IMG/VR virus record: IMGVR_UViG_3300027320_000003
Coordinates: 70,192-134,191 of that record
DNA length: 64,000 nucleotides
Origin: a virus
Lineage: Duplodnaviria > Heunggongvirae > Uroviricota > Caudoviricetes
Reading direction: 5' to 3' (one strand)
Shown: positions 5,385-41,697 of the stretch, piece by piece
Position numbering within the stretch: the stretch's first letter is position 1
How the letters are laid out: every line of letters starts with the position of its first letter
Notes under the pieces: model-generated
Told to the model about the DNA's origin: nothing
Databases searched by the model: none
What the model saw: only the letters and a program-made list of their open reading frames with translations
Translations under genes and position numbers: made by a program

Positions 5385-5416
5385 CTTTCCATTCCCGAGA
5401 ATCGATGTATTCTCCT
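5385..5416 (+). promoter_or_regulatory. conserved promoter-like element, copy 1 (CTTTCCA-N13-ATGTATTCTCCT)
   Basis: Matches the repeated motif. Here it is followed by a 24-nt leader with SD gaaagga before the ATG at 5441. Confidence 0.5.
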
Positions 5417-5440
5417 GTTACACCAACTGAAAGGATCCAA

Positions 5441-5989: not shown

Positions 5990-5997
5990 GGAATATA

Positions 5998-7077: not shown

Positions 7078-7084
7078 AATTCTA

Positions 7085-7136
7085 AACAAAATTGTTTGCG
7101 AATGTTTAATTGTTTCAAACAATTTTGTTTACGAAT
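7085..7136. repeat. intergenic direct repeats, each an imperfect palindrome (operator-like)
   Basis: aaacaaaattgtttgcgaat (7085-7104) and aaacaattttgtttacgaat (7117-7136). The 14-nt cores are reverse complements of each other. Lies in the 170-bp gap upstream of the ORF at 7248. Confidence 0.5.
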
Positions 7137-7247
7137 ACTCAATAATAGTTTAAACGTTCTTTGGTCCACCAACATAGACGCTATAACGTCTTATCTCTGA
7201 CTCGCATCAGAGATTCTGTTGAGGCCAAAATATCTGGAGACCAGCCT

Positions 7248-8669: not shown

Positions 8670-9028
8670 AAAAGAAGAAACAAGGTCCAGCGTTTAAACC
8701 GCCAATCGAGATCTCGGCTGGCAATTACCTAGCCTACGACTCCAAGCATAAATTGGTTGAGATTAAAATCATACAGGTATTAGATAACGAATATGTTAAG
8801 TATGATGACGGATCGGTGTCTTGGACCGACATGACAAAGTTCCTAGCGACCTACACTCCAATTAAAAAGTTGCCGGCGGTGGTAAGCATCCCACAAATTC
8901 AGGAACTCGGTAATTTTCGCGACAAATACTTGACCCACCCGGAAATGCCAAAACCAGTGCCAATCTGGTATACTGTTCCAAATGATGCTCCACAGTTGCC
9001 ACAGATCTATTGCATCACAAACACGTAA
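8666..9028 (+). CDS. hypothetical protein
   Basis: 120-aa ORF with ATGA start/stop overlap. Confidence 0.4.
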   Translation: MKKKKQGPAFKPPIEISAGNYLAYDSKHKLVEIKIIQVLDNEYVKYDDGSVSWTDMTKFLATYTPIKKLPAVVSIPQIQELGNFRDKYLTHPEMPKPVPIWYTVPNDAPQLPQIYCITNT

Positions 9029-9036
9029 GGAATATA

Positions 9037-9345
9037 ATGCCAGACAAAACAAACGCTCTCATTGAGGCCGGATTCATCCGCGGATTAGATATCGTTCTGC
9101 TGATAACACAGGTGATACTAACCATCATTCTCGTAACCGTATCTGTCACGGAACAGGTGTCAGTCAACTGGCGATTTGCCATATTTGGCGTGATGCTATT
9201 CCTGATGCTAGTGTGGTCAATCTCGGTTAGCTTCCGAGCAGCGTACTTTGCACTGACAACGCGCGCTATTGCTGAAACAATGCCACAACAGGCAGCCGCC
9301 TACGCCGCTGGCATTCTAAAACAAAATATCCCAGGTAAAGCCTAA
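9037..9345 (+). CDS. small integral membrane protein
   Basis: Same TAAGGAATATAATGCCA initiation cassette as the gene at 5998. Two or three hydrophobic helices (LLITQVILTIILVTVSV, FAIFGVMLFLMLVWSISV). Confidence 0.45.
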   Translation: MPDKTNALIEAGFIRGLDIVLLITQVILTIILVTVSVTEQVSVNWRFAIFGVMLFLMLVWSISVSFRAAYFALTTRAIAETMPQQAAAYAAGILKQNIPGKA

Positions 9346-10248: not shown

Positions 10249-10986
10249 TTAGTGCCTGTACAGGTCTAGGATTTTAGACTCTAGATCTTTCAGCAGGCCG
10301 TCATGCATTTGTGAATCTAGGTCGGTTAGTTCATTAAATTTGATGGTGTCTACTCCGCCAGCGTTCTTTTCTACGCTTAGAGTACCATAGGCCTTTTCAA
10401 TTTCAACCGCTGTTCCACCTTCCTCAAAGGACACGTTCCATTCAGCGGTAACACCGCCTTCAACGTAATCCTCTCCGGAGGAGAACGCGAGGTTGAATGA
10501 TTGCAATTTTTCCATGAGAAGCGCCTCAGCTAGTCGTCTGGCTGGGCTAATAGGCCTAGAGGATTCAGCGACCACGGCTCCATCGGCCGAGGCGCTGTGA
10601 ATTAACGCCTGGTACTTCTCATCGAAAACATTCTCGAAACCTTGCTGCTCAAACGCTCCCTTATCAGAAAACTCCCGATTGTCAAACCAATCGTTAAACT
10701 CTTGGATGCTCGTAACACCACGCAGGTCAGCGATATCATTTTCAAACACGCCGAATAGAGGCTCTAACCCACCGGACGCGTTGGCAATTTCCTGCAAGGT
10801 GTCCTCGTCCAGTTCCATCCGTAATTCGCCGGCAACGTCATAATCCTCAGATAGGATCTTGAAACTTAATGCTGCCCAACCATCCTTAGAATCACCGACG
10901 CGCGTGATATCGCTAGTGAAACCTAGCACCTGGAAAGGAATTCCGCCTATTGAGAACGACACCGGCATGCGCAATCTTCTTGTCAT
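10249..10986 (-). CDS. hypothetical protein
   Basis: 245-aa ORF co-directional with 9342-10238. Confidence 0.4.
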   Translation of the reverse strand: MTRRLRMPVSFSIGGIPFQVLGFTSDITRVGDSKDGWAALSFKILSEDYDVAGELRMELDEDTLQEIANASGGLEPLFGVFENDIADLRGVTSIQEFNDWFDNREFSDKGAFEQQGFENVFDEKYQALIHSASADGAVVAESSRPISPARRLAEALLMEKLQSFNLAFSSGEDYVEGGVTAEWNVSFEEGGTAVEIEKAYGTLSVEKNAGGVDTIKFNELTDLDSQMHDGLLKDLESKILDLYRH

Positions 10987-11017
10987 GGTATAACTATTGC
11001 GGAACGATAGTTAACAT

Positions 11018-13645
11018 ATGGCACGCGCTACAACCGTTGAAGATTTAGCTAAAAGTCTTGGAGATATTAAGAAATCCATCTCCGCGACGTCTGACTACTC
11101 CTCTAGCATTGATAAGTCATTTGCTGAATCCCGTAAGAATGCCGAGGGCTTTAGACAGAGTATAGACGGTGTAAAGGAATTGTCTAAGAATTTACGCAAG
11201 AACCTAGGACCAATAGGATCCTTGTTTAAGGTTGATACGTCTGGTCTCGAGGCCGTGCAGGAGAGCTATAAATCTCTAAGCGAGGAGCGGTCCGCCATCT
11301 CACGTCAAATGCTGGAATATAGCACCGAGATTAATCGTCTTCGTGCTCGTGGTGCGTCTATTACAGACAGGGAGGAGCGAACCCTTCAGAATATGACGCA
11401 CGAGATGTACATGCTGAAGGATGACCTTAAGACGGTTGTCTCGGAGCAGGCAAAGCTCGAACCGTCGATGAAGGCCTACGGTAAAGCATGGAGCGAGGTA
11501 ACGGAGCTTGGCGATGAATTGCGCGCCTCGATGGTCGCACTAGCGGCTTTTACCGGTGTTTCCATGATCGCCAGACGGTTTGATGATGTTAGTAAAGCTG
11601 TATCTCAGAGCAACTTAGGCATACAGAACCAGCTTAAATTATACGCGGATGTCAATCAGGCGCAACTTGCATCCGGAGTATCACTAGACTCCATAATCGC
11701 CGCTCAGACCGCCATCGTGTCTCTCGGGTTAGAAAATCTAGGAAACAACAAGGATAATGTCAAGGTTGTTGGCATGCTGCAGGACAGCCTAGGCGTATCT
11801 GTGGATGAGTCTGCCCACCTTCTCGCCATTAGCCGAACCACGAGCGACAGCTTCTCTAAGATGGCTGACACGATATCCTACATGAGCCAACAGACCGGTG
11901 TCACTGCTAATAATATAGCAAAGATGTCCGTGGATATTACTCGCCAGGCCGGTAGCATCGGTAAAGTTGGATTCGATCTTTCAAACCTAACCGCAGCTGG
12001 AAGTTTAATTCAGGGCATCACCAACCGATTTGGAGGCGCCGGCGACGAGTTTAGCAAGTACTATTCCGCGATTACCTCGGCTAGGAACCTAACACCGGGT
12101 GCATTTGCGGGTACCGGTGCCGGTGCGTATGGCCAAGTCACTGATCCTAAGCTACTTCTCCAAGGACACGTTAAGAGCCTAGAGGCGGCGTCATCGATGG
12201 CTGATATTCCAGGCATGGGAGAACAGATTGAGAAACTGTTTGGAGTTAGCCAATTAGAGGCTAGCCTCTTTAAAAACAATAAAGATTTTAAGGCCGAGAT
12301 GATGTCGACGATCGACACCTACGATGAAACCATCGCCAAACAGAGACAAGTTAACTCCCTAACTGCCGGTTGGAACGAGCAGAACAAGAGCCTAGTTAAG
12401 TCATACGACACCATCAGGAGCACCATGTCGGGACTCCTGGCATCAGCATTAACTCCAATGGCCTCTGGGTTAGCGGTTGTTGCTGGTTGGTTGGCCAAGG
12501 TAACGACTGGGATGCAGGAGTTCTTCTCGGAGAACCAGAAAGCGGTTAAGATTGTTGGTTACGCTATTATGGCCGTCGCTGTACCCGCCCTAGCATACGC
12601 TACAATACAGGCAGCAGAGTTCGCGGCCGCGCTAATGGTGCTTGCTCGTGGCTTTAAGATTAACGCCATGCAAACAGCCGCGAAGTCTAATGGTGGAGGT
12701 TTGCTGGACGCTGTTGCTGGTGGTGGTATTAGCAAGATGTTAGAGGGTCAATGGAAGATTTCATTTAAAGGATTACTGTCAGCCATCAAAGGAGTCGCGA
12801 ATGTCGCCACACTTGGCCTATTCACCGGTGGTTTGAAGGGTATGATTGAGATGCTGTCTAAGGCAGGTCCATTACTATTCGGAGGAGCAAAAGCATTACT
12901 AAAGTTTATTGGACCAGTTGGCCTGATAATCTCCGCCATAGGTGCCGTGATGGATATGTTTGACGACACTAAGACTAGAGCAGACGTTCTTGTTGGAGTG
13001 CTAAACAGCCTATCATTCGGTCTTCTTGGACTCGCTCTCAAGGCTGATTGGGTTAGAGACTCGTTGAAATTCTTATCGACGGTGCTCGTTAATACCCTCG
13101 ACAACATCACGTCCGGCATGCTTAAAATAGTCTCCACGCTATCCGGGTTCTTCGGTCTTAAGGGTATATCATCCTGGGCAAAAAACCTGTCTAAGACGAT
13201 GTCTGAAAATTTTAGCACAGCTAATGACGAGATTTCAAAGTCAATCGACAAGCTAGCTGACATTGAGGCAGACAAAAAGAAAACCAAACCGGAGGATAAA
13301 TCTAACTTCTCCGACATGTGGAGCAGCACGACATTAGCCGATTTCGACAAATTTAATGCAAATTCAATTAAGAATGACCTGGTTGTTTCATCCAAGTCAC
13401 GGCCTCTACAGACTACTGAGCAGCAATTCCTCTACGATCCAACCGCTACTCGTCAGATTGCCAAGCAGGAGGAGATTTCAAAGAACATTGTTGAGTTAAC
13501 CTCTGTTATCAAGAAGACGAGTGGCGTTGACGTTGAGACCCAGCAGAAGATCAGCGATCAGGAACGTGACAACCGGATGTTTGATATGATCATGTTTGCT
13601 GAATTTAATAGTCCTGGATTAACACCGAACATGGCCAGATTATGA
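11018..13645 (+). CDS. tape-measure-like protein
   Basis: 875 aa. Long predicted coiled-coil N-terminal half. Central hydrophobic segments (KIVGYAIMAVAVPALAYATIQAAEFAAALMVLARGF). Gly-rich patches. Typical TMP composition. Confidence 0.45.
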   Translation: MARATTVEDLAKSLGDIKKSISATSDYSSSIDKSFAESRKNAEGFRQSIDGVKELSKNLRKNLGPIGSLFKVDTSGLEAVQESYKSLSEERSAISRQMLEYSTEINRLRARGASITDREERTLQNMTHEMYMLKDDLKTVVSEQAKLEPSMKAYGKAWSEVTELGDELRASMVALAAFTGVSMIARRFDDVSKAVSQSNLGIQNQLKLYADVNQAQLASGVSLDSIIAAQTAIVSLGLENLGNNKDNVKVVGMLQDSLGVSVDESAHLLAISRTTSDSFSKMADTISYMSQQTGVTANNIAKMSVDITRQAGSIGKVGFDLSNLTAAGSLIQGITNRFGGAGDEFSKYYSAITSARNLTPGAFAGTGAGAYGQVTDPKLLLQGHVKSLEAASSMADIPGMGEQIEKLFGVSQLEASLFKNNKDFKAEMMSTIDTYDETIAKQRQVNSLTAGWNEQNKSLVKSYDTIRSTMSGLLASALTPMASGLAVVAGWLAKVTTGMQEFFSENQKAVKIVGYAIMAVAVPALAYATIQAAEFAAALMVLARGFKINAMQTAAKSNGGGLLDAVAGGGISKMLEGQWKISFKGLLSAIKGVANVATLGLFTGGLKGMIEMLSKAGPLLFGGAKALLKFIGPVGLIISAIGAVMDMFDDTKTRADVLVGVLNSLSFGLLGLALKADWVRDSLKFLSTVLVNTLDNITSGMLKIVSTLSGFFGLKGISSWAKNLSKTMSENFSTANDEISKSIDKLADIEADKKKTKPEDKSNFSDMWSSTTLADFDKFNANSIKNDLVVSSKSRPLQTTEQQFLYDPTATRQIAKQEEISKNIVELTSVIKKTSGVDVETQQKISDQERDNRMFDMIMFAEFNSPGLTPNMARL

Positions 13646-21570: not shown

Positions 21571-21608
21571 CTTTCCAACGGGCACCGGCGGTGTATTCTA
21601 CCACCATG
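21571..21608 (+). promoter_or_regulatory. conserved promoter-like element, copy 3 (fused to the ligase ATG)
   Basis: CTTTCCA-N13-GTGTATTCTACCACC-ATG. Confidence 0.55.
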
Positions 21609-22718
21609 ACACCCGTAAACTCCGACGTCGTCCAATCTCTTAAAGATCAGCTCCTCCAATGGGATCACGAGTATTACACTCTTAGCTATCCCACCGTCAC
21701 AGACGCTGAATACGATCGCGTAAAGAAGGAGTACATCTCCTTGACCGGTGACACCGCTGTCCGTGGTCGTGCTGATTCAGGCAAGAAACAGAGGCACAAG
21801 GTTCCAATGCTCAGCCTGTCGAACGTTTTCTCCGAGGCTGAAATCCACCAATTTTTTAGCAAATATGACCTCGAGAACGAGGAATGGACGGCGGAGTACA
21901 AGGTTGACGGTCTTAGCCTCAGTCTCATCTATGAACATGGCAAGCTGACAAAGGCGATTACCCGTGGCGACGGTGTTACGGGTGACGACGTTACCGCCAA
22001 CGCCATGAATTTTGTTCCAAGGATAGTCGAGGAATTAGCCGAAGATTCTTATGCTGAGATTCGTGGTGAGGTTATTATCCCACGTTCCACCTTTAAGAAG
22101 CTAAATGAAACTCTCGTTGAATCCGGTGAAGAGCCGTTTGCCAACGCTCGTAATGCCGCCTCCGGTAGCCTCAAGTTGAAGGATGCTAGCGAGTCCAAGA
22201 AACGTGGATTACAGTTCATCTCCTACCGATTTATCGTTGACGACTACGCTGACCTACTGACACATGGCGACGAGATTAGTGCCTTGAAGGCCTACGGTTT
22301 CACCACTGTTGACACAGGATCAATTGAATCACTGATCGCTAATAGAGACAGTATCGACTACGATACTGATGGTCTGGTGATTAAGATTAAATTTCTTGAG
22401 GACCAACAAAAAGCTGGTGATGCCAACGGTTATCCAAAGTGGGCATGTGCCTATAAACTCCCACAGCCAAGAGTTACCACCATACTTCTTGACATCGTGC
22501 TCACCGTTGGTCGTACCGGCCAGATTACTCCTAATGCAGTGCTCAAGCCGGTACAGTTGGATGGTAGCCGCGTTAAGGCCGCGAGTCTTTGCAACCAAGA
22601 TGAGATCGACCGACTTGGAATCGACATCGGCGATACAGTCATCATTGAGAAGGCCTGTGCTATTATTCCAAAAATCGTTGGAAGAGTGAATACTGCGGGT
22701 GTGTCTGAGGTTCTGTAG
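21606..22718 (+). CDS. ligA: NAD-dependent DNA ligase (short LigA-like, no BRCT region)
   Basis: EYKVDGLSLSLIYEHGKLTKAITRGDGVTGDDVT matches the LigA adenylation segment (KxDG...RGDG). The N-terminal Ia-like segment LLQWDHEYYTLSYPTVTDAEYDRV is the NAD-specificity domain. Start set at the ATG at 21606; the track start at 21591 is the GTG inside the promoter motif. Confidence 0.8.
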   Translation: MTPVNSDVVQSLKDQLLQWDHEYYTLSYPTVTDAEYDRVKKEYISLTGDTAVRGRADSGKKQRHKVPMLSLSNVFSEAEIHQFFSKYDLENEEWTAEYKVDGLSLSLIYEHGKLTKAITRGDGVTGDDVTANAMNFVPRIVEELAEDSYAEIRGEVIIPRSTFKKLNETLVESGEEPFANARNAASGSLKLKDASESKKRGLQFISYRFIVDDYADLLTHGDEISALKAYGFTTVDTGSIESLIANRDSIDYDTDGLVIKIKFLEDQQKAGDANGYPKWACAYKLPQPRVTTILLDIVLTVGRTGQITPNAVLKPVQLDGSRVKAASLCNQDEIDRLGIDIGDTVIIEKACAIIPKIVGRVNTAGVSEVL

Positions 22719-31603: not shown

Positions 31604-32413
31604 ATGAATAGATACGAGCGTGGTTCTGGTGAAGTGGCGATGATTGGCATCGCGTTGGTGGTTGTTGTTGGGTTAGTCCTACTCTTTGGTTCATTCTCAG
31701 TGGTGGATCCAGGTTATCGTGGCATTGCAGTAACGATGGGCAGTGTATCAAATGATGTTCGCGGTGAAGGTGTATCGTTTAAGACTCCGCTATTCACCGA
31801 TATCGTAAAAATGTCGATTCGACAGGAGTCGTTCAGCGCTAAGGCGCCATGTTTCTCGTCTGACATGCAGACTATGGGTGTCAATGTGACAGTACTCTAC
31901 CGGCTGTCTGAGGAACGGTTAGTGGATTTATTTAAAAACTATAACCAAAACATTGTCGGTGGAGTTATCGAGCCGAAACTGCAGGAGAGTCTTAAAGAGG
32001 TAACTGCGATGAACACCGCTGAGGGTTGCGTTAAGAACCGTGAGAAGGTTAAGATCGAGACGTTACGCCGATTGAAGGAAAAGGTGGCCAATCTCGCCAC
32101 GGTCGACGACGTGATCATAGTCAACATTGACCTATCGCAGGAACTAGAGAAGGCCATTGAACAGAAGATGGTGCAGGAGCAGGAGGCTGCCAAAGCTAAG
32201 TTTAAACTACAACAGGCCGAGGTTGACGCACAGACAGCGGTGGTGCGAGCTGAGGGTGAAGCTAAGGCTATCCGAGTTCGTAGTGACGCATTGAAAGATG
32301 GTAAAGGAGTGGTTGAACTCATGATCGCGGAGAAATGGAATGGTGTATCTCCTCTCGTGGTTGGTGGTGGAAACGGTGCTAACATTCTTCTTCCTCTTGG
32401 AGACCGTAAATGA
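31604..32413 (+). CDS. SPFH/band-7 (prohibitin/HflKC-like) membrane protein
   Basis: N-terminal TM helix. SPFH core VDPGYRGIAVTMG. A predicted coiled-coil region rich in A/E/K/Q. C-terminal LMIAEKWNG. SD aaaggaaaatATG. Confidence 0.75.
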   Translation: MNRYERGSGEVAMIGIALVVVVGLVLLFGSFSVVDPGYRGIAVTMGSVSNDVRGEGVSFKTPLFTDIVKMSIRQESFSAKAPCFSSDMQTMGVNVTVLYRLSEERLVDLFKNYNQNIVGGVIEPKLQESLKEVTAMNTAEGCVKNREKVKIETLRRLKEKVANLATVDDVIIVNIDLSQELEKAIEQKMVQEQEAAKAKFKLQQAEVDAQTAVVRAEGEAKAIRVRSDALKDGKGVVELMIAEKWNGVSPLVVGGGNGANILLPLGDRK

Positions 32414-32573: not shown

Positions 32574-32610
32574 CTTTCCACAGCGCACGGTGCGTGTATT
32601 CTCCTGTATG
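32574..32610 (+). promoter_or_regulatory. conserved promoter-like element, copy 6 (fused to ATG)
   Basis: CTTTCCA-cagcgcacggtgc-GTGTATTCTCCT-gt-ATG. Confidence 0.55.
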
Positions 32611-33078
32611 ACAAAAAGCTATATAAACGACTGGCTGGATAAGCTCCTAATCGAGGCTAAGAGATTAGCCTACGAATATCACGCTGACCAGAGACGAAAC
32701 GACGAAACTCCGTACACGGATCATATTGAAGCCGTGGTAGCTGGAGTTGACGATAGGCCAAGAACCACACCGCTAGATCTAGCGGTTCTCAAGAATCTTC
32801 AGATTGTGGCGTACCTGCATGACATTATAGAGGATACGGAATTCACCGCCTCGGATCTGCGAGCAATCTTTCCATCTGACATATGCGAAGCGGTGATACT
32901 GCTGACGAAGGTTAAAGATGAGAAATGGAATTACGTTACCTACCTCGATGGAATCGCTAAGAATTATCTGGCAAAGCGAGTGAAACTATCTGACCTAAAA
33001 CATAACATGTCTGACCTAAAACCTGGCAACCTGTACGATAAGTACATGTTAACGGTGGCCTACCTAAACGGAAAATAA
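32608..33078 (+). CDS. HD-domain small alarmone hydrolase (RelA/SpoT hydrolase family)
   Basis: H...HD...D pattern. YEYHADQRR, VAYLHDIIEDT (compare AALLHDVVEDT) and KLSDLKHNMSDL (compare KLADRLHNMRTL). Start set at the ATG at 32608; the track start is the GTG inside the motif. Confidence 0.7.
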   Translation: MTKSYINDWLDKLLIEAKRLAYEYHADQRRNDETPYTDHIEAVVAGVDDRPRTTPLDLAVLKNLQIVAYLHDIIEDTEFTASDLRAIFPSDICEAVILLTKVKDEKWNYVTYLDGIAKNYLAKRVKLSDLKHNMSDLKPGNLYDKYMLTVAYLNGK

Positions 33079-33080
33079 CT

Positions 33081-33440
33081 ATGAAATACATCGCAATCTT
33101 GTCACTTCTTCTCCTGTGCTCATGCTTCCCAAACTACTCTGAAGGTAGTCGAGTTGGGACGGTTGTGAAGCTATCTCAAAAGGGACTCGTGTTTAAATCG
33201 TGGGAGGGTGAATTAAGCATGGGATCAATCAAGCGGGTTAACAACGCTGACGGATCTATCACCACCACGAACGTGTTTGAGTTTAGTGTTGAATCGCAGG
33301 AAGTGGTTGATCAACTTCGTGAGGCAATGAAAACCGGCGAACGAGTTGAGCTGGTCTATAGGCAATGGGCCATGGCACCTCCAACCGTCTGTACCTCGTA
33401 CGTTATCACATCCATCAAATCAACCGAGCAGGAAAAATAA
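33081..33440 (+). CDS. putative lipoprotein
   Basis: Signal peptide MKYIAILSLLLLCSC with a lipobox-like LLCSC. Confidence 0.45.
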   Translation: MKYIAILSLLLLCSCFPNYSEGSRVGTVVKLSQKGLVFKSWEGELSMGSIKRVNNADGSITTTNVFEFSVESQEVVDQLREAMKTGERVELVYRQWAMAPPTVCTSYVITSIKSTEQEK

Positions 33441-33715
33441 TGGGAATGTTTGATTACATCATCTGCCATTACAAGCTACCTGACAACCCAACCAACGAGA
33501 CAGAGTTTCAAACGAAGGATTTGATCAACGGTTGTGCTGAATACGCGCTTGATGAACACGGCAATTTCTCCTACCGCGATAGACTTGACCGCCCATTTCA
33601 TGGAAGATTCGAATTCTACACCTACGCAGGACTAGACCCGACAAAATGGCTTCGATACGAGGCCACGATAACCCATGGCCAATTGACTGGCCTAATAAAG
33701 GTAGAGCAAAACTAA
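33440..33715 (+). CDS. hypothetical protein
   Basis: ATG at 33440 overlaps the upstream TAA. The track start at 33365 lies inside the previous gene. Confidence 0.35.
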   Translation: MGMFDYIICHYKLPDNPTNETEFQTKDLINGCAEYALDEHGNFSYRDRLDRPFHGRFEFYTYAGLDPTKWLRYEATITHGQLTGLIKVEQN

Positions 33716-33720
33716 AAATT

Positions 33721-34563
33721 ATGATCGCAAAATTCGAGTTCTTTAAATTTCCGTGCGGTGAATGGCATTTTAAGGTTAATCCCATTGACTATAACAAGAT
33801 GAAGGCTGATACTAATAACCTCATCATTGACGGTCGTGGATTGACGCTTGACCAATTGGCTATGATTAGGCACTACGCCTTAGACCAGCTAAAGTGTGAT
33901 ATTGACTTGTTTCTTCCATACGTTCCATACTCGAGGCAGGATCGCAGAACGTCACCCATTGAGCCATTCACATTGAGAGCATATTGTAACGTCATCAATG
34001 GGTTGAATTTTCGGCAGGTGTTTATTGCCGATCCTCATAGCGATGTGACTCCTGCGCTTCTAAATAGGGTGCGCGTTACATCGGCATTGGATATCGTACT
34101 CGACTTCCATATCTTGCGCAACCGTCATTTTGGACCCAAAAATAACACCGTTGTCATATCTCCTGATGCTGGGTCTATGAAGAAGGTCCACCAGATTGGA
34201 CGAAATCTAGACGTGCCAATCGTCTACTGCGAGAAGAAGCGCGACACGGCGACCGGAGAGTTATCCGGTTGTGTGGTACATGCCGATGACCTCACTGGAA
34301 AAGACGCCGTAATCATCGACGATATTTGCGATGGTGGTGGAACGTTCATCCCAATCGCGAAAGAACTGAAGGCCAAAGGATGCCGCAAAGTAGTTCTCTA
34401 TGTCACGCATGGCGCCTTCACAAAAGGAACGCAGGTTCTATTTGAGAACGGAATCGACGAAATTTTTACCACCAACAGTTTTGACCAAACTGGAAAATAT
34501 GTAAACATCTACGATCTGCTAGATAAGCACGTTGTAGCAACATTAGGAACAGATGAAAAGTAA
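33721..34563 (+). CDS. ribose-phosphate pyrophosphokinase (Prs)-like enzyme; candidate ADPR-pyrophosphate synthetase (Adps) of NARP1
   Basis: PYVPYSRQDRR (compare PYFGYARQDRR), VISPDAGSMKK, VIIDDICDGGGT (PRPP-binding loop) and VTHGAF. The N-terminal region diverges from canonical Prs. Confidence 0.7.
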   Translation: MIAKFEFFKFPCGEWHFKVNPIDYNKMKADTNNLIIDGRGLTLDQLAMIRHYALDQLKCDIDLFLPYVPYSRQDRRTSPIEPFTLRAYCNVINGLNFRQVFIADPHSDVTPALLNRVRVTSALDIVLDFHILRNRHFGPKNNTVVISPDAGSMKKVHQIGRNLDVPIVYCEKKRDTATGELSGCVVHADDLTGKDAVIIDDICDGGGTFIPIAKELKAKGCRKVVLYVTHGAFTKGTQVLFENGIDEIFTTNSFDQTGKYVNIYDLLDKHVVATLGTDEK

Positions 34564-36031
34564 GGCAATTAACCATATCGACTTCTACAAAGCTGGACAC
34601 CTTTTTCAATATCCAGATGGCACTGATCTAGTGTATGCCAACCTCACTCCACGAGGATTGCGCTACCTTCCAAAGATTGGGGGTATCGACAACACTCGAG
34701 TTCGTGTCATTGGTCTGCAATATTTCTGCATGGAATTTCTCATTGCCGATTTCAATCGGTCGTTCTTTGGAGTTCCACTGGATCAAGTGGTTGAGCAATA
34801 TAAACGTCGCATGGATACATCACTGGGTGTAGACTCGGTGTCCGTTGACCACATCATTGCCTTGCATAACCTAGGTTACTTGCCAATTGAGATTATGTCA
34901 TTACCTGAGGGAGTAGCTGTACCAGAGAAGGTGCCTGTGCTCACGATCCATAATACCCTACCGCAGTTCTTCTGGCTGACCAATTACTTGGAAACTGTGC
35001 TTAGCGCATGGTTGTGGAAGTTTATGACCAGCGCCACTATCGCTGATCGGTATCGCCAGATCCTTACGAAGTATGCTAAGGAAACTGGCGGTGACCTAGG
35101 CTTCATCCAATTTCAAGCCCACGACTTCTCATTTCGTGGTATGAGTTGCTCGCAGGATGCAGCGATGAGTGGAGCTGCTCACCTTACCCAGTTTGTTGGT
35201 ACTGACACCGTTGTCGCTATTGACCTACTTGAGGATTACTACGGAGCTGATGCCAGCAAGGAACTCGTTGGTTGCAGCGTACCAGCTACGGAGCATAGTG
35301 TTATGTGCGCCGGTGGTAAGGTAGATGAGCTTGAGACATTTCGTCGATTGATCAACAAGATTTATCCGAAAGGAATTGTGTCTATCGTCTCTGACACTTG
35401 GGATTTTTGGAAGGTGCTCACCGAGTACCTACCGATTCTCAAAGATGAGATTATGGCACGTGATGGTAAGGTCGTGATTCGTCCAGACTCCGGCGATCCA
35501 GTCGATATTATCTGTGGTGATTATACCGCGGCTCCTGGAACTCCGGCATTCAAAGGTGCGATAAAACTCCTGTGGGAGGTTTTCGGTGGAACAGTTAACT
35601 CTAAGGGCTATAAAGTTCTTGATCCACATATTGGTCTAATCTACGGTGACTCCATTACCTTGGAACGTGCCGATGAAATCATGCGACGGCTAAGTCTCAA
35701 CGGATTCGCATCCACAAACGTCGTGTTCGGTGTTGGTTCATACACCTACCAATATCAAACTCGTGACACTCTTGGCTGGGCGGTAAAAGCCACGGCAGCT
35801 AAGGTCAATGGCCAGTATCAAGAGTTGTTTAAGGATCCAATCACTGACTCCGGTCTTAAGAAATCTGCCACCGGATTCTTAAAGGTGGTTAAGGATGGAG
35901 ATAGCTACAAGCTAATCGATAGAGTTAAGTTTGAGGAGATCCATGATGGTGAACTCAAGACGGTGTTTATTGACGGTAGGTTAGTGGTAAAGCATACACT
36001 GGCTGAAATCAGAGCACGGTCAGTGGTATGA
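34553..36031 (+). CDS. nicotinamide phosphoribosyltransferase (Nampt/NadV)-like enzyme; candidate Namat of NARP1
   Basis: 492 aa with the N-terminal DFYKAGH (compare TDSYKxxH) signature of the NAPRTase family. Overlaps the upstream gene by 11 nt. Confidence 0.65.
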   Translation: MKSKAINHIDFYKAGHLFQYPDGTDLVYANLTPRGLRYLPKIGGIDNTRVRVIGLQYFCMEFLIADFNRSFFGVPLDQVVEQYKRRMDTSLGVDSVSVDHIIALHNLGYLPIEIMSLPEGVAVPEKVPVLTIHNTLPQFFWLTNYLETVLSAWLWKFMTSATIADRYRQILTKYAKETGGDLGFIQFQAHDFSFRGMSCSQDAAMSGAAHLTQFVGTDTVVAIDLLEDYYGADASKELVGCSVPATEHSVMCAGGKVDELETFRRLINKIYPKGIVSIVSDTWDFWKVLTEYLPILKDEIMARDGKVVIRPDSGDPVDIICGDYTAAPGTPAFKGAIKLLWEVFGGTVNSKGYKVLDPHIGLIYGDSITLERADEIMRRLSLNGFASTNVVFGVGSYTYQYQTRDTLGWAVKATAAKVNGQYQELFKDPITDSGLKKSATGFLKVVKDGDSYKLIDRVKFEEIHDGELKTVFIDGRLVVKHTLAEIRARSVV

Positions 36032-36378
36032 AACAGACGTCACTGTACTACGTAACCTTGACCAGCCCAGATAGCGGTCGTACACTCGTTCTATCGTGGG
36101 ATGAATCAGCCTACTGGAGAATGCATAGATACCCAGGGTCAGGTGAGTGCAAGCACGCGACGCTGACCGAGGCGCTTGAGAACGGAAAACAATGTCTATT
36201 TGATTCAGGTGTTAAGGCTAATCAGTTCTTTACATATTCTGACGACGCTGACACCGCCCGTAAGCATCCAGAGCTTCTGACTAGAAAGCTAGAGGTTCAT
36301 GAACTGTCCGCCTTTGAATTGAACCACCTTAATCAAGTGGCTTTAGCAGCGTTTATTGGATCTAGAATCTTAAAATAA
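36028..36378 (+). CDS. hypothetical protein
   Basis: 116-aa ORF with ATGA overlap. Confidence 0.4.
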   Translation: MKQTSLYYVTLTSPDSGRTLVLSWDESAYWRMHRYPGSGECKHATLTEALENGKQCLFDSGVKANQFFTYSDDADTARKHPELLTRKLEVHELSAFELNHLNQVALAAFIGSRILK

Positions 36379-36383
36379 ATTAT

Positions 36384-36415
36384 CTTTCCACTCAAGAATA
36401 ACCGTGTATTCTCCT
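36384..36415 (+). promoter_or_regulatory. conserved promoter-like element, copy 7
   Basis: CTTTCCA-ctcaagaataacc-GTGTATTCTCCT, followed by a 33-nt leader with SD aaaggaa before the ATG at 36451. Confidence 0.5.
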
Positions 36416-36450
36416 AGTATCAGTTTAAAACCTCAATAAAGGAACCAACT

Positions 36451-36927
36451 ATGAAAGCAATCGTAATTCGCAGTAAACGTGGAACATGGACAAGTAAGTC
36501 TTGCCGTGAGCTCCTTAACATCCGTGCAAACCAATCCGTCTATGTGATCGGACCAGACGGACAACTCATTGTAACCATTAAAAAAGCACCGGGTGAGGCC
36601 AGTCGCACTATGAATGCCGCTCTCAAGCACCTTAACGGCACCTCAATGATCGCCCTTGACCGTGATGTCATGCGTTCTATCGGCGTAGTGCCTGGTGATA
36701 TCGTAAAAGTTTCCGAGGAGCAAGAAATTCAGGCTGTTGACGTTGAGACCTACACGTCTGATCGCGAACGTCCAACGACACTCGCCCAACGCCTCGCTGA
36801 GATGACGGTAGGTGCCCATATGGTTCTCACGGCTTCCCAGTATAAGAGTAGCATCTACAAAGCAGCGAAAGATGCCGGTGTCGAGTTCACTAAACTCGGT
36901 AACAACACCATCAAAATTGTTGGTTGA
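36451..36927 (+). CDS. hypothetical protein
   Basis: 158-aa ORF. Confidence 0.45.
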   Translation: MKAIVIRSKRGTWTSKSCRELLNIRANQSVYVIGPDGQLIVTIKKAPGEASRTMNAALKHLNGTSMIALDRDVMRSIGVVPGDIVKVSEEQEIQAVDVETYTSDRERPTTLAQRLAEMTVGAHMVLTASQYKSSIYKAAKDAGVEFTKLGNNTIKIVG

Positions 36928-36943
36928 GGTAGCATCCGGCAAG

Positions 36944-36987
36944 TCTCCTCCGTGGTTGGCTGAGACTTGCCGGTCTCAACATGTATT
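36944..36987 (+). terminator. possible hairpin terminator
   Basis: 12-bp stem ccggcaagtctc/gagacttgccgg with a 14-nt loop. The downstream U-tract is weak. Confidence 0.3.
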
Positions 36988-36996
36988 TAGAATAGG

Positions 36997-37296
36997 ATGA
37001 GCACCGCCAAGAAGATCATAGAGGAATTAGAGGAAATGGAAGGTTCAATTGAGAGCCTCGCCGCTGATTTCATCGAAGACGTGGTTGGCTCATCCACTCT
37101 CAAGAAGAATTGGGAGCAGTTAAAAGCTTCCGCCGAATCACGGGATGAGGCTATCATTAACCAGATCGCCACCTATCTGGCCAAACAAGGTGAACCAGTC
37201 GCTTTCGCGAATGATGTTTACGACCGGGTTGAGAGTTGGGCGAAGATGGATCGCCAGTGGAGTTCATTTTTCTCACGCTGGAAGAAGTCCAGTTAA
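36997..37296 (+). CDS. hypothetical protein
   Basis: 99-aa ORF. Confidence 0.4.
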   Translation: MSTAKKIIEELEEMEGSIESLAADFIEDVVGSSTLKKNWEQLKASAESRDEAIINQIATYLAKQGEPVAFANDVYDRVESWAKMDRQWSSFFSRWKKSS

Positions 37297-38202: not shown

Positions 38203-41200
38203 CTAGTGCTTGACAAGTTTCTTCATCCCGGCCGATATGTCATCCCAGTCAACATTTCTCTTAGGAACCTTTACGGCGTCCATATAGTTGTAACCAACTT
38301 CGTGGTCACAGTCAAATGGAACGATACACCACGAGGTGTCAAAACCAGGTACAAGAGTTGATATAACATCAGGCATGTTCTTAAACACCGAGTCACAAAT
38401 CTCGTGCACCTGTGGTAACTCGTCAGTAATGGCGTCGATAACCAAGGAATCATGCACCGTGCATATCAACTTACTCTCGAGCTGGTAGTCCTCCATTAAC
38501 CGTTCGATGGCGATGAGCGAGAACAGCATCATATCCGAGGCAGTTGACTGAATGAGATGGTTATACCCGGATCGCAGGGCCTTATTGATCCTCTGCTTAT
38601 CATCTGAAAATACTTCCTCGAATATCCGGACACGGCCTGTGATACTGACTGCGCAACCGTTATCCTGCACAAATCTCTTGTAATGACCAATGTGCGTCTT
38701 GAGATCTGGATACGCCGCAAAGAAATTCTCAAGCAGTTTCTCACATTCATCTAGCTGGAGATAGACACCAGCCAAAGCGCAGGCGCTCTGAAAACCAAGA
38801 GCACCGCCGCCGTATCCAGTAAGAAAGTTTAGGATTTTACCAAGCTTACGTTTACCAGCCAGTTTCTTAACCTCGTCAGCTTTGCCGTTCTTCTGTAACC
38901 AAATCTGGTGATCGTCGGAGAAGGTTTCGTACGGTATGTTAAACACGAGGCTAGTGGTTTGGCTATGCAGATCCACGTCGTCAACATACGCCTTAACCAT
39001 TGCACTATCACCGCATGCTGCGGCAAGTAGCCGTAATTCAATCTGTGAAAGATCGCTCTGAAATATGCAACCACGTTCCTTAAACCTTGAGCTGTATAGT
39101 CTCTTAATACCACCACTCTCGCGCGGAATTTGCTGCAAGTTTGGATTGGTGTTATGGTTAATGAAACCTTGGGCGACGTAGCTATTATCCTCCTCGACGT
39201 GCATGTCATGAACTGTCTCATACCCAACCATGTCTTTGCTTACGATGGTGTCATGACCGCCGTTGGCGTTAGATGCAATCTTGACAATGTCACCGATGTC
39301 TAGGTCTAGGAGATAGCTCCAACCGCTTGGAGTTAAAAATCTATGACCACTCGTGGCCTTGATGATGTAACCACGGCTCGTTATTACCCGGTACATGGTT
39401 GCCTTTGGTTTAACAACGTGGCACAGGATGCGTTGCCAGTGACCGGTATGGGTCTGAATCCGTGTGTTGCGGTACTTTGCGAGCACCTTGCCTAGATCCT
39501 TAATTCTAACGCGAATGTTTGTGAACCCGTTGACCTGCAGGTTTAAAACTGTGTCAGCTGACACGCAGCACGATAATCTACCACCTCGAGTACCGGTGAG
39601 CTTAAAGCTGGCATGTACGCAACCATCATCCATGAGAAGTTGCTGCGCTGTGCGGTCCTTCTTATCAACACCGGCGATGCTAAGGTTACGCATTGGTCTA
39701 ATATAGGAGCTATAGGCCTTGCGCAACTTGCGGTAATTGATCAATGGGCGCACCTGTGGATAACCAACACTAAGGTTGTTTAGGGTGAATTTGTCCATGG
39801 AAGCAAATTCAATTCGCTGATCCATCGGTATCTGGTCGATTGGAACGCCCTTAAAACGTTTATCACCTGCCTCCGTGAGAGTGTTTACTGGGCATTGGAG
39901 AAGGTTAAAGAGAATAGTTCGTAGCTGTTTCTTATCCTCTACATCAAGTTCCCAATCCGGGTTATTAACCTTCTGTATCTTAACCCATCGATCAATCTGC
40001 GGGTCGCTCTCCTGCAACTCCTTAATGGCATTACGAATTAGATCTGGGGACGCGACTTCCTGGCGGGTTAATTCGTCGACGTCAACGTGCATGCCGCGCG
40101 CCATCATACGGGCTAGAGTATCGCCAGCTGGTCGCATCAAGCAATCATATACTAACTTACGACTCGGCGGAGAGTACAGCCGGTATGCACCACGATTCTC
40201 CGTATGGGCCAATGGTATGCGGTATGTTTTGGCCAGCTCCAAGCGTTTGTCAATGCCTTCGCAGGCCTCCCAACAAACCTCAACGTCACCCATCACATAC
40301 GGTTTAAACGCGGTATCCCAATATTCTTTTGGGCAATTGGCGTAGTGACCACCGCTGTCTGGGTGTAGGAGCTCCGGATATTTGTCGATGAGCATTGTCA
40401 TGCGCTCCTCGTACCCCGCTAGTGTCGGTGCCCAGTCGTAGGCAATAACCTCGAGTCCCATGCTACCGGTCTCCTGTCTCCAAATGTACCGCATGTGCCA
40501 ACTATCCTGCCAAAAAGCACTACAGATCTTCTCAATGTAATCTCTACCTCCAGGCAGTGTGCCAATCACGAACAGGATATCGAAAGTAAGATTATGCCCA
40601 CGCAGCTTACTCGCCGACAGGGCCCGCAAAATAAACGGTGATAGATAGGCAACAAACTCCTTCAACGGGCTACCTTCGTAATCCCATGCCCAACCAACGC
40701 TGCGGTCAGTTCCATCCAGTTCATTCCACCGGAACATAAAATAAACAATCTTGTTTCCGTTTTTAAACGGATGTAGGCCTGTCGTTTCAGTATCAAAACT
40801 AAGCAATGTTCCTGGGTTGTCAATAAGATACTGGCATGATTCTCTTACGGCCTCAGGGTCCTCTGTTAGGATCCACCACGGACGATCATACTCGTAGGTC
40901 TCAACTCCGCCAGCCTTCGCTATCGCCGCTGCCTTAACAAATGCATCATTCCACCGTTTCACGGAGATCTGGTTGGCAAAGGTAAAGACGATCTTTGGGC
41001 TTTGAATCGCCAGAATAGGAATCTGTGTCTCGCCGGATGGACGATCACCGAGTATTGGATGACCACCATCGTAGGTCTTAGAGATCAAAAAATCGTCTGG
41101 CCAACCTCGCCAATTAAGGATACGACCATTCCAGTCCTGCGCGTTGGATTTAATATTCAGCAAACCGAGCACGTTGGAACCAACTGCCATAACAAGGGCT

Positions 41201-41697
41201 GGCGGATGATCGCGAAGCTCCTTCGTAAGAAATAGACGGCAATATCTACCCGCAGACTTAGCCGATTTCTTAAGATCGCCTGGGAAGCAGCGGGTGATAG
41301 GGGCAATGCGGACGGTGTCCTCAAACTTAAGACCTAGCTTCGTAAGGTGCGGCGAGAGCGTCTTTCGTAGGAAACTATTGACACCCTTATCCTGTCCAAT
41401 ACGGCCGTTCTCATCCTCGGATTGGCTGGGACCCTCAGTTATGATAGTGATCAACGGTCTGTCTGGCCCTACTGGCTCAAGATATTTTGACCGACAATTA
41501 GAGGCGAATAGCGCACATTTCCTGCACACTGGATTATCAGGTCCTGGCTTGAAATCAGCACCAGATGCGATTAACTCCTTAGCCTCGCGCTCATATTTCT
41601 GAAACGGAGACTTTTCTTTCTTGACCTTCTCGGTCTTAGCTCGAGCTTTTCGCGGCTTCTTTTCTATCGTGGCGTCTAATTGTAATTCTTCCATCAT
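38203..41697 (-). CDS. family A DNA polymerase with N-terminal UDG-like domain and 3'-5' exonuclease, interrupted by a mini-intein
   Basis: Exonuclease motif FDTETTGL. Pol A motif A DLSQIELR, motif B RKLGKILNFLTGYGGG and motif C VHDSLVID. LTGTRGGRLS-[intein]-TNPNLQQIP corresponds to the conserved RLSS..PNLQNIP segment. The N-terminus has a family-4 UDG-like CxxC plus GEGPG-like ITIITEGPSQSEDENGRIGQ...SFL. Confidence 0.85.
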   Translation of the reverse strand: MMEELQLDATIEKKPRKARAKTEKVKKEKSPFQKYEREAKELIASGADFKPGPDNPVCRKCALFASNCRSKYLEPVGPDRPLITIITEGPSQSEDENGRIGQDKGVNSFLRKTLSPHLTKLGLKFEDTVRIAPITRCFPGDLKKSAKSAGRYCRLFLTKELRDHPPALVMAVGSNVLGLLNIKSNAQDWNGRILNWRGWPDDFLISKTYDGGHPILGDRPSGETQIPILAIQSPKIVFTFANQISVKRWNDAFVKAAAIAKAGGVETYEYDRPWWILTEDPEAVRESCQYLIDNPGTLLSFDTETTGLHPFKNGNKIVYFMFRWNELDGTDRSVGWAWDYEGSPLKEFVAYLSPFILRALSASKLRGHNLTFDILFVIGTLPGGRDYIEKICSAFWQDSWHMRYIWRQETGSMGLEVIAYDWAPTLAGYEERMTMLIDKYPELLHPDSGGHYANCPKEYWDTAFKPYVMGDVEVCWEACEGIDKRLELAKTYRIPLAHTENRGAYRLYSPPSRKLVYDCLMRPAGDTLARMMARGMHVDVDELTRQEVASPDLIRNAIKELQESDPQIDRWVKIQKVNNPDWELDVEDKKQLRTILFNLLQCPVNTLTEAGDKRFKGVPIDQIPMDQRIEFASMDKFTLNNLSVGYPQVRPLINYRKLRKAYSSYIRPMRNLSIAGVDKKDRTAQQLLMDDGCVHASFKLTGTRGGRLSCCVSADTVLNLQVNGFTNIRVRIKDLGKVLAKYRNTRIQTHTGHWQRILCHVVKPKATMYRVITSRGYIIKATSGHRFLTPSGWSYLLDLDIGDIVKIASNANGGHDTIVSKDMVGYETVHDMHVEEDNSYVAQGFINHNTNPNLQQIPRESGGIKRLYSSRFKERGCIFQSDLSQIELRLLAAACGDSAMVKAYVDDVDLHSQTTSLVFNIPYETFSDDHQIWLQKNGKADEVKKLAGKRKLGKILNFLTGYGGGALGFQSACALAGVYLQLDECEKLLENFFAAYPDLKTHIGHYKRFVQDNGCAVSITGRVRIFEEVFSDDKQRINKALRSGYNHLIQSTASDMMLFSLIAIERLMEDYQLESKLICTVHDSLVIDAITDELPQVHEICDSVFKNMPDVISTLVPGFDTSWCIVPFDCDHEVGYNYMDAVKVPKRNVDWDDISAGMKKLVKH
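39151..39567 (-). mobile_element. mini-intein (Hint domain, 139 aa, no endonuclease domain) inside the polymerase gene
   Basis: Begins CVSADTVL (block A). Contains block B THTGH. Ends VAQGFINHN, followed by Thr as the +1 residue. Removing it restores the contiguous Pol A motif GRLSC-TNPNLQQIP. Confidence 0.65.

Follow-up and report, generated by a model that had tools for sequence, protein, structure and literature searches.

Two overlapping genes in the 64-kb window (the whole stretch of viral DNA analysed here) encode relatives of ribose-phosphate pyrophosphokinase (Prs) and of nicotinamide phosphoribosyltransferase (Nampt, or NadV). The question they raise is whether the pair serves a classical salvage of nicotinamide through NMN or the direct reconstitution of NAD+ from ADP-ribose (ADPR) known as NARP1, a pathway described in Bacillus phage SpbetaL1, Escherichia phage Bas63 (JohannRWettstein), phage Fado and Vibrio phage ICP1 (Osterman et al. 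2024, bioRxiv 10.1101/2024.02.11.579819). The original prediction preferred NARP1 over salvage by Prs and NadV. This preference is upheld by the adenine clamp of the Nampt-like protein and its similarity to the SpbetaL1 enzyme, as well as by the phosphate-binding loop, the lysine and the C-terminal truncation of the Prs-like protein: the pair very probably corresponds to a minimal NARP1 operon, made up of an ADPR pyrophosphate synthetase (Adps) and a nicotinamide ADPR transferase (Namat). The genes and their neighbours are the following.

33721..34563, + strand: adps, homolog of the Prs-like ADP-ribose pyrophosphate synthetase, 280 aa (PF00156, PF14572, PHROG 619, alignment with ICP1 Adps, tree)
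34553..36031, + strand: namat, homolog of the Nampt-like nicotinamide ADP-ribose transferase, 492 aa (PF04095, PHROG 448, match to PDB 9W5X, tree)
32608-33078: HD-domain protein, with a generic phosphohydrolase PHROG match and a weak HD_4 match
33440-33715: upstream ORFan, 91 aa, with 5 nt between its end and adps
36028-36378: downstream ORFan, 116 aa, its start overlapping the namat stop as ATGA

The anatomy of the pair is observed directly: both open reading frames lie on the + strand, adps coming first, and share 11 nt (ATGAAAAGTAA), in agreement with the overlapping Prs-like and Nampt-family genes that had been predicted. A longer reading of adps is available (305 aa from 33646), and the 33721 start also appears in the recorded gene calls of two metagenome contigs (Logan, JGI). 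A megablast search of 50,697 phage records recovered no DNA-level relatives of positions 33000-37000. The source is a deeply novel uncultured myovirus with a genome of ~144 kb. It lacks close relatives in culture, and the DNA polymerases of cultured phages are at most 33% identical to its own. Between 31000 and 38500, promoter-like sites are fewer than expected by chance and terminator-like sites lie ~2 sd above expectation (13 vs 6.7 +/- 3.0), with no convincing terminator boundary among them to define the operon. The HD-domain protein was considered as a possible ADPR-related phosphatase and set aside; it has a counterpart in two of 80 NARP1 loci, with marginal scores.

The Nampt-like protein matches Pfam NAPRTase (7.5e-44), NCBIfam PRK09198 (6.7e-172) and PHROG 448 (2.8e-198). 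It is 54% identical (541 bits) to the crystallised SpbetaL1 Namat (9W5X/9W5W; PMC12774641) and ~48% identical to the Felixounavirus Namat; its scores to true Nampts are 241 bits (Xanthomonas) and 222 bits (human). The tblastn identities are bimodal: phages of the NARP1 type lie at 39-57%, and the Nampts of the KVP40-like or T4-like kind at 29-33%. Four segments bear on its catalysis and specificity.

34646..34699, + strand: SCL region of Namat (selectivity-clamp loop), TPRGLRYLPKIGGIDNTR, in which R37 (in G-L-R37) aligns with SpbetaL1 R40
35282..35299, + strand: PATEHS segment of Namat, holding H248, the conserved catalytic histidine of the Nampt-type core
35477..35497, + strand: IRPDSGD segment of Namat, in which R310 and D312 correspond to SpbetaL1 R306 and D308
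35735..35767, + strand: SCH motif of Namat, GSYTYQYQTRD, aa 395-405, its third and seventh residues being aromatic

The residues of the NAM/NMN site are all kept (D10, Y12, F192, R195, D218, A245, R310, D312), and further core residues (S193, H248, G365, D366) align to the SpbetaL1 Namat, whose R306A/G mutants are inactive (Osterman et al.; PMC12774641). The adenine clamp, in contrast, belongs to Namats and is lacking in Nampts. Its SCH part has a Namat-only signature, GS-X-Phi1-X-Phi2-X-Phi3-TRD, where the X of positions 3 and 7 is aromatic and in which Phi3 has mainly been reported as Asn or Val (PMC12774641) and is Gln in the window. The same 11-residue motif is found in 70 of the 78 Adps-linked viral homologs, whereas a KVP40-type Nampt (ValKK3) has GGGLLQQLDRD at that place. 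As for the SCL, its third residue is Arg, Lys or Tyr, and R40 stacks on adenine in SpbetaL1 (PMC12774641); the window loop is 6 residues longer than that of SpbetaL1 and of uncertain geometry.

The Prs-like protein is of the two-domain PRPS type. In Pfam it matches Pribosyltran (4e-11) as well as Pribosyl_synth (2e-10), in NCBIfam ribP_PPkin (5e-36) and, among phage families, PHROG 619 (3e-73, 247 bits); its best PDB match is the Sulfolobus Prs (77 bits). Apart from the broad subfamily-level TIGR01251 (124 bits vs a cut-off of 113), which is the sole NCBIfam Prs model that it passes, it fails all the Prs equivalog and subfamily cut-offs widely (e.g. 115 vs 296, 104 vs 297). Its N-terminus is indeed atypical, as had been proposed, since the Pribosyltran_N match is confined to residues 61-92 and its 21.3 bits fall short of the gathering cut-off (25). 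Identity to the Adps of ICP1 and of Felixounavirus is 32-33%, and the highest value among 5.8 billion proteins is 52%. The ICP1 sequence from GenBank served as the Adps reference for the alignment, which places the key elements as follows.

33928..33948, + strand: YSRQDRR motif of Adps, aa 70-76, in which R72 is the equivalent of ICP1 R87
34234..34236, + strand: K172, the Adps catalytic lysine, aligned with ICP1 K185
34318..34347, + strand: DDICDGGGTF, the Adps-type PP loop, which binds the donor ATP phosphate (DDICDGGGT, aa 200-208)

The xSRQDRR motif and the PRPP-binding loop, which the original prediction had considered retained, are thus both present. The ICP1 residues F18, R87, H121, D161, K185, D212, D213 and D216 are kept in the window as F10, R72, H106, D149, K172, D200, D201 and D204, respectively. 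Both F18 and R87 contact the ADPR adenine in ICP1, and F10 is invariant among 22 relatives. The catalytic lysine is likewise invariant in the 22-sequence Adps alignment; the ICP1 K185A mutant is inactive (PMC13586617, which also reports Adps structures; Osterman et al.), and from the literature K172 would also be the equivalent of SpbetaL1 K162. Two aromatic positions of ICP1 differ in the alignment: opposite F92, a further adenine contact, the window has T and Felixounavirus (Bas63-like) has M, in an RF loop whose alignment is uncertain, and the ATP-cap residue F223 is replaced by P.

The donor-binding PP loop has been remodelled in Adps and is conserved among them (C215-S220 in ICP1). The window DDICDGGGTF aligns with DDICDGAASF in ICP1, DDICDGGRTF in Felixounavirus and DDMIDTGGTL in the E. 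coli Prs, so that the pattern I-C-D-G-x-x-T/S-F is common to the window, ICP1 and Bas63-like Adps, whereas the E. coli Prs reads M-I-D-T-G-G-T-L. Across the 22 relatives F209 never varies, and C203, D204 and G205 hardly do. The C-terminal alpha11-alpha12 module of Prs is missing from the window protein, which contains no RRIxNEES-type segment; the tail beyond TTNS is 27 residues long in the window protein, compared with 41 for the E. coli Prs, 21 for Felixounavirus and 16 for ICP1.

The phylogenies agree with these residues. In the neighbor-joining tree of Adps the E. coli, Sulfolobus and mycobacterial Prs are split from the window protein, the ICP1 and Felixounavirus Adps and 79 viral relatives (99/100), and in the Namat tree five NARP2-type Nampts are split from a group in which 71 Adps-linked homologs join the window, SpbetaL1 and Felixounavirus proteins (100/100); the ingroups consist of sequences chosen for their resemblance to the window protein and the outgroups of just 3 Prs and 5 Nampts, so these bootstrap values show a separation from those references rather than a placement in a comprehensive family tree. 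A position inside the canonical Prs and NadV clades, which had been named beforehand as the outcome that would speak against NARP1, was therefore not seen. The five Nampt references come from KVP40-like, T4-like and jumbo phages, and a NadM gene lies near three of them.

The pairing of the genes is also observed in relatives. A Namat homolog stands on the same strand beside the Adps relative in 78 of 80 viral loci, just downstream in 76; the published share of Adps with a Namat neighbour is 97% (Osterman et al. 2024). The same authors defined Adps operationally by a Namat homolog within 10 genes, and here it is the adjacent gene. Some relatives carry Nuc_deoxyri_tr2-like and NADAR genes between adps and namat, and these insertions may be further extensions of the pathway.

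The absence of an Nmnat from the window was also part of the original prediction, and it stands for the 64-kb window: Pfam analysis of its 84 predicted proteins found no CTP_transf_like, Nudix or NadR families, and no Nmnat was detected in 18 kb of flanks either (precomputed Pfam, and a six-frame NadM profile search over window and flanks). A single NadM profile match (~36433-36630, - strand, 16 bits, E = 6e-4) was rejected as spurious. It consists of 46 residues matching a non-catalytic linker, lacks the HxGH motif and belongs to an antisense fragment of 69 aa that overlies a gene called on the + strand. An Nmnat elsewhere in the genome, together with NMN formation from PRPP, had been named as a second outcome unfavourable to NARP1, and here the prediction is sustained in part: the search covered ~82 kb of the ~144 kb genome and found none, while ~60 kb (~40%) lay outside its reach. 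Walking outwards with exact tags, taken at the window end and at the far ends of the flanks, gave no matches in viral_contigs or in metagenome_contigs.

Taken with the known NARP1 loci of SpbetaL1, Bas63, Fado and ICP1, the window pair has the same gene order, the same domain content and the same sides of the trees, and it shares the lysine and acceptor residues, PP loop and C-terminal loss of Adps and the core and SCH/SCL clamp of Namat. It differs from them by identities of 32-54%, a longer SCL, the changes at ICP1 F92 and F223 and a more Prs-like YSRQDRR. NARP2 of Vibrio phage KVP40, which pairs a Nampt (NadV) with the bifunctional Nmnat/Nudix protein NatV, has in common with it the Nampt-family core, NAD+ as end product and a role in countering NAD+-depleting defences, but its Nampts have no aromatic SCH and are partnered by a NadM-type Nmnat instead of Adps; the ValKK3 Nampt is 34% identical to the window protein. 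Compared with canonical class I Prs and Nampt (NadV), the folds, the PRPP-type loop, the RQDR positions and the phosphoribosyl-transfer chemistry are alike, whereas the window Prs-like protein fails the equivalog cut-offs, has DDICDGGGTF in place of DDMIDTGGT, whose DTGGT is the ribose-5-phosphate loop, lacks the C-terminal regulatory and filament module with alpha11-alpha12 and is barely matched by Pribosyltran_N.

Larger versions of the pathway are also known. The core pair is shared with NARP1-AP of Vibrio phage Gary, where the Macro-domain ADPR-1''-phosphatase Adpp accompanies Adps and Namat, and with the NARP1 of mycobacteriophage DyoEdafos, assisted by the RyR-domain glycosidase RyDEP. 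Unlike these, no window protein contains a Macro (PF01661) or RyR (PF02026) domain according to Pfam, and, judging by the published properties of these systems, the operon of the window would neither respond to ADPR-1P formation of the aRES type nor recycle cADPR signals. The Pfam families of NARP3, which pairs a PnuC-like transporter with a NadR-like enzyme, were not found in the window.

On this basis the following mechanism may be proposed. Effectors of the SIR2, TIR and SEFIR types cleave NAD+ into ADPR and nicotinamide. The Adps would then convert ADPR and ATP to ADPR-PP, and the Namat would exchange the pyrophosphate of ADPR-PP for nicotinamide, yielding NAD+ directly, so that neither an NMN intermediate nor an Nmnat would be needed. 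The rebuilt NAD+ would sustain the replication of the phage, including its NAD+-dependent ligase. This ligase, previously reported at 21606, was recovered with its ATG at that position (DNA_ligase_aden 1e-60, OB domain 9e-27, KVDG at aa 104-107); the dependence of replication on NAD+ through it is a reasonable suggestion and is no evidence for NARP1 in itself. Function is here transferred from homologs at 32-54% identity, and it is from these that we infer both enzymatic activities, the substrate preference, the timing of expression and the anti-defence phenotype of the window pair.

Several other scenarios may be considered. A classical salvage, either NARP2-like or host-assisted, would combine a true PRPP synthetase with a Nampt (NadV) and be completed by an Nmnat elsewhere in the phage or by the NadR/NadD of the host. 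Such a scenario seems very unlikely, even though Pfam, NCBIfam and PHROG give the two proteins the names of Prs and Nampt, TIGR01251 is passed and YSRQDRR resembles the motif of canonical Prs more closely than its ICP1 or Felixounavirus counterparts do. Within the Adps/Namat clade these names have proved incorrect (Osterman et al.), and in the trees the two proteins group with Adps and Namat, respectively. They carry the Namat clamp, the Adps PP loop and the C-terminal truncation; all the Prs equivalog cut-offs are failed and the identity to NARP2-type Nampts is just 29-34%. The portion of the genome beyond the Nmnat search leaves room for a salvage gene, against which stands its absence from 82 kb. 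In published surveys, moreover, the phage Nampts of the KVP40 clade have no Adps neighbour and no phage has both pathways. Since Namat enzymes retain an NMN-forming activity from PRPP in vitro (Osterman et al.; PMC12774641), some classical salvage flux is conceivable.

Another possibility is that the pair is biochemically NARP1 but mainly serves ends other than anti-defence, either by maintaining the NAD+ pool for phage NAD+ consumers such as the ligase or by recycling ADPR from host or phage metabolism. Bacterial NARP1 homologs without a known physiological role do exist (PMC12774641), and the ligase of the phage is of the LigA type and keeps its KVDG motif. Nevertheless, the substrates of NARP1, free ADPR and nicotinamide, are the products of NADases. 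LigA, for its part, releases NMN and AMP, neither of which is used by NARP1. Since, in addition, ADPR-PP has been detected only under an active defence system and every tested NARP1 operon counters NAD+-depleting defences (Osterman et al.; PMC12774641; PMC13586617), a mainly metabolic role appears distinctly improbable. That adps and namat are decayed or non-functional relics is hardly credible: such decay does occur in nature, as the namat of ICP1 2017_Dha_B has an in-frame stop and a TRD-to-TCD change, but neither window gene is shortened and all catalytic residues are kept, and an identical Namat protein is recorded on 4 contigs, those listed coming from separate samples.

It may finally be asked whether the window adds to the minimal NARP1 operon. 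The two lineage-specific ORFans packed against the pair could be new accessory parts of NARP1, for instance by processing a non-canonical NAD+ breakdown product into ADPR in the way of Adpp and RyDEP, or the long SCL could alter the substrate range of Namat; we regard this as rather far-fetched, the sole support for either idea being gene adjacency. The ORFans have no Pfam match, no informative PHROG match, only self-matches among 5.8 billion proteins and no counterparts in 80 related NARP1 loci. Their single-sequence AlphaFold models are poor (pLDDT 49 and 64), so that a divergent Macro or RyR fold in them is conceivable, and Foldseek comparisons to PDB and BFVD gave a best E of 0.06.

The window pair is thus an ordinary addition to an already-described anti-defence system. 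As NARP1 was described in 2024 and has been reported in ~4% of sequenced phages, another copy leaves the general picture unchanged. It nevertheless indicates that the published signatures (SCH/SCL clamp, PP loop and C-terminal truncation) cleanly classify a very divergent environmental homolog, of a kind to which databases still give the names 'Prs' and 'Nampt'. The range of NARP1 would also be extended to an uncultured lineage of ~144 kb myoviruses, and its presence there would imply that NAD+-depleting defences act as a selective pressure in the aquatic host of this lineage.

The original prediction of a Prs-like gene overlapping a Nampt-like gene was borne out: both ORFs are present on the plus strand, within a long co-directional gene array, and no convincing promoter or terminator boundary was found near the pair. 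The genes considered here are the following:

21591-22718, + strand: NAD-dependent ligase, 375 aa, with adenylation and OB domains and an intact KVDG motif
31604-32413, + strand: SPFH/Band-7 protein
32608-33078, + strand: HD-domain metal-dependent phosphohydrolase (PHROG 990, 3e-35; weak Pfam HD_4)
33440-33715, + strand: ORFan of 91 aa, with a 5-nt gap before adps
33721-34563, + strand: protein 1, Prs-like ORF of 280 aa, read as Adps
34553-36031, + strand: protein 2, Nampt-like ORF of 492 aa, read as Namat
36028-36378, + strand: ORFan of 116 aa, starting at the namat stop (ATGA overlap)
38203-41697, - strand: family A DNA polymerase, 1164 aa, with an intein (Pfam Intein_splicing, 1.3e-07)

The stop of protein 1 and the start of protein 2 overlap by 11 nt (ATGAAAAGTAA). 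An alternative reading of protein 1 begins at 33646 (305 aa) and would share 70 nt with the upstream ORF; the start at 33721 is that of the gene calls on two metagenome contigs encoding an identical Nampt-like protein. The families recognised in protein 1 are Pribosyltran and Pribosyl_synth of Pfam, ribP_PPkin of NCBIfam and PHROG 619 (3e-73); those recognised in protein 2 are NAPRTase of Pfam, PRK09198 of NCBIfam (6.7e-172) and PHROG 448 (2.8e-198). The features first attributed to protein 1 were all recovered: the SRQDRR motif (YSRQDRR, aa 70-76), a PRPP-type loop (aa 200-208) and an atypical N-terminus, which reaches only 21.3 bits with Pribosyltran_N (cut-off 25).

Phage operons annotated as "Prs + Nampt" encode two different enzymes, Adps, which makes ADPR-PP from ADPR and ATP, and Namat, which converts ADPR-PP and nicotinamide to NAD+; members of the phage-specific Adps clade adjoin a Namat in 97% of cases, a separate KVP40 Nampt clade is paired with Nmnat (NARP2), and none of the surveyed phages had both pathways (Osterman et al., bioRxiv 10.1101/2024.02.11.579819). 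The pair could be read as NARP1 (Adps and Namat), as classical Prs plus NadV salvage, or as NARP2. Adps is known to retain the PRPS acceptor surface and the catalytic Lys (ICP1 K185), to have a remodelled PP loop (C215-S220) and to lack the C-terminal alpha11-alpha12 module of PRPS, a "defining signature" according to the authors (PMC13586617). No Adps chain was found among the PDB sequences searched, and the ICP1 Adps from GenBank, whose numbering agrees with that of the structural paper, was therefore used for comparison. Protein 1 keeps its residues F18, R87, H121, D161, K185, D212, D213 and D216. The PP loop reads DDICDGGGTF in protein 1, DDICDGAASF in ICP1, DDICDGGRTF in a Felixounavirus Adps (Felixounavirus being the genus of Bas63) and DDMIDTGGTL in E. 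coli Prs. Protein 1 ends 27 residues past TTNS, compared with 41 in E. coli Prs, and therefore lacks the alpha11-alpha12 segment; it also falls below every NCBIfam Prs equivalog cut-off by a wide margin. However, two ICP1 contact residues are changed, F92 to T and F223 to P, the former at a position that varies in Bas63-like Adps too.

The specificity of Namat is accounted for by an adenine "selectivity clamp" of two elements (PMC12774641): an SCH motif, GS-X-Phi1-X-Phi2-X-Phi3-TRD, that is aromatic at positions 3 and 7, and an SCL loop with Arg, Lys or Tyr as its third residue. In comparisons with PDB sequences, the score of protein 2 is 541 bits with 9W5X/9W5W, which are the SpbetaL1 Namat according to the data-availability statement of the same paper, against 241 bits with Xanthomonas Nampt and about 222 bits with human Nampt; in alignments its identity is 54% with SpbetaL1 Namat and 34% with a KVP40-like Nampt. 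The NAM/NMN-site residues are all kept (D10, Y12, F192, S193, R195, D218, A245, the His of PATEHS, R310 and D312). The SCH motif is a full match (GSYTYQYQTRD, aa 395-405, Tyr at positions 3 and 7), whereas the KVP40-like Nampt has GGGLLQQLDRD in its place. R37 aligns with the adenine-stacking R40 of SpbetaL1 Namat, although the SCL loop is six residues longer than in that protein.

Several of the sequences compared have peculiarities of their own. PDB 9ke8/9keo, deposited as "nicotinamide phosphoribosyltransferase", resemble Namat much more than Nampt, scoring 454 bits with protein 2 and having 57% identity to SpbetaL1 Namat; yet their SCH region, GAQTYQRNTRD, is non-aromatic at positions 3 and 7 and a Glu occupies the R40 position. 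They may be an intermediate or an exception to the clamp rule. The Felixounavirus Namat (Escherichia phage finno, 2959-4740) has 593 aa, with insertions of about 80-95 residues after the RPDSGDP segment and of 15 residues after the catalytic His, because of which tblastn recovers it in two pieces. In the ICP1 isolate 2017_Dha_B (MW794158.1), namat (2938-4437) carries an in-frame stop near its 5' end and is for that reason annotated from an internal GTG (439 aa); its SCH motif ends in TCD rather than TRD, losing the conserved Arg, and the adjoining adps is intact. The NARP1 of this isolate may be decaying.

In tblastn searches of 50,697 phage records, the identities of protein 2 were bimodal: 39-57% with NARP1-type phages (ICP1, Felixounaviruses, Staphylococcus, Bacillus and Listeria myoviruses, and mycobacteriophages) and 29-33% with the Nampts of KVP40-like, T4-like and jumbo phages. 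Of 80 IMG/VR loci in which a relative of protein 1 is encoded, 78 have a Namat homologue on the same strand, 76 of them just downstream. The 11-residue SCH motif was found in 70 of these 78 homologues, with Tyr or Phe at position 3 in all 70 and an aromatic residue at position 7 in 66. Neighbour-joining trees (100 bootstraps) separated five Nampts of NARP2 type, of which three have NadM encoded close by, from the window protein, SpbetaL1 Namat, Felixounavirus Namat and 71 Adps-linked homologues (100/100), and the Prs of E. coli, Sulfolobus and Mycobacterium from the window protein, ICP1 Adps, Felixounavirus Adps and 79 relatives (99/100); the ingroups had been collected for their similarity to the window protein, and outgroups were few. 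Both proteins thus fall on the Adps/Namat side, as expected from the initial preference for NARP1 over Prs plus NadV.

Gene content bears on NARP2, which would require an Nmnat. The reported absence of a recognisable Nmnat from the window held: the complete lists of Pfam families for its 84 predicted proteins lacked CTP_transf_like, Nudix, NadR, PnuC, Macro and RyR, and Pfam gave no such matches in the flanks either, which reach about 8 kb on the upstream and 10 kb on the downstream side. Likewise, a profile of three phage NadM/Nudix proteins, each also used singly as query, gave no credible match in six-frame translations of the window and all recovered flanks. Beyond the window, the absence extends to these 18 kb of flanks, about 82 kb in total; the phage is known from one contig of 116,265 bp, ENA ERZ27246579 k141_341586, and another of 143,750 bp, so that about 60 kb lies outside the reach of the search. 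The exclusion of NARP2 from context is limited accordingly, but the assignment by clade and motif is unaffected. In the NARP2-type jumbo phage CBB of Pectobacterium, a NadM-type Nmnat, a Nampt, a Sir2-like protein and a second Nudix hydrolase lie within 7 kb (2248-9300), a group that looks like an NAD+-metabolism island.

The window operon has the minimal two genes, whereas NARP1-AP has a Macro phosphatase in addition and RyDEP-assisted NARP1 a RyR-domain glycosidase. The two flanking ORFans had only self-matches among 5.8 billion proteins, no fold match (single-sequence models were poor) and no counterparts in the 80 related loci, and no evidence was found that ties them to the pathway. A few genes upstream, the HD-domain and SPFH/Band-7 genes are not conserved NARP1 neighbours either (2 and 3 of 80 loci, marginal scores). 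In the closest viral relatives, extra genes lie between adps and namat: a Nuc_deoxyri_tr2-like gene (PF15891, 3.9e-31) and a NADAR-domain gene (PF08719, 3.9e-42) in L011 (6819-7757), a Nuc_deoxyri_tr2-like gene and an AAA/STAND-like ATPase gene in L013 (6716-8663), and a Nuc_deoxyri_tr2-like gene in L020 (6843-7361), all IMG/VR records. NADAR is an anti-DarT factor. Macro and RyR proteins are the only NARP1 accessories described in the cited papers, and a search of the literature turned up no paper that connects the inserted families with NARP1; these genes might extend NARP1 further or might just belong to an anti-defence island.

Elsewhere in the window, the NAD-dependent ligase originally placed at 21606 is real and retains KVDG. 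It lacks the Zn/HhH/BRCT C-terminal half, and a separate protein of 272 aa, with faint Pfam matches to HhH_2 and BRCT, is encoded about 10 kb past the window end (10633-11451 of the flanking record), some 50 kb from the ligase; LigA may be split between the two. A cluster at 60-839 (+) and, just upstream of the window, at 4712-8929 of L010, the record covering that flank, consists of two Amidoligase_2 proteins, a GGACT (gamma-glutamyl cyclotransferase-like) protein and a class-II glutamine amidotransferase (GATase_6). It resembles a small module for modifying peptides or metabolites.

Taken together, the anatomy of the pair, its family and clade membership, its catalytic and specificity residues and its pairing in relatives make it very probable that the pair is NARP1, in its minimal two-gene form. 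By analogy with the characterized homologues, Adps would pyrophosphorylate the ADPR released by SIR2, TIR and SEFIR NADases, and Namat would couple ADPR-PP with nicotinamide to give NAD+ directly. The phage would then be expected to escape type I Thoeris, DSR1/2, SIR2-HerA and SEFIR, but not aRES, which makes ADPR-1P, or defences that do not deplete NAD+. No cultured phage has a DNA polymerase more than 33% identical to this one, the nearest being those of SPO1/SP-10-like Bacillus myoviruses, which places the phage in a deep uncultured lineage. A known system, NARP1, would thus be found here in a deeply novel uncultured myovirus.
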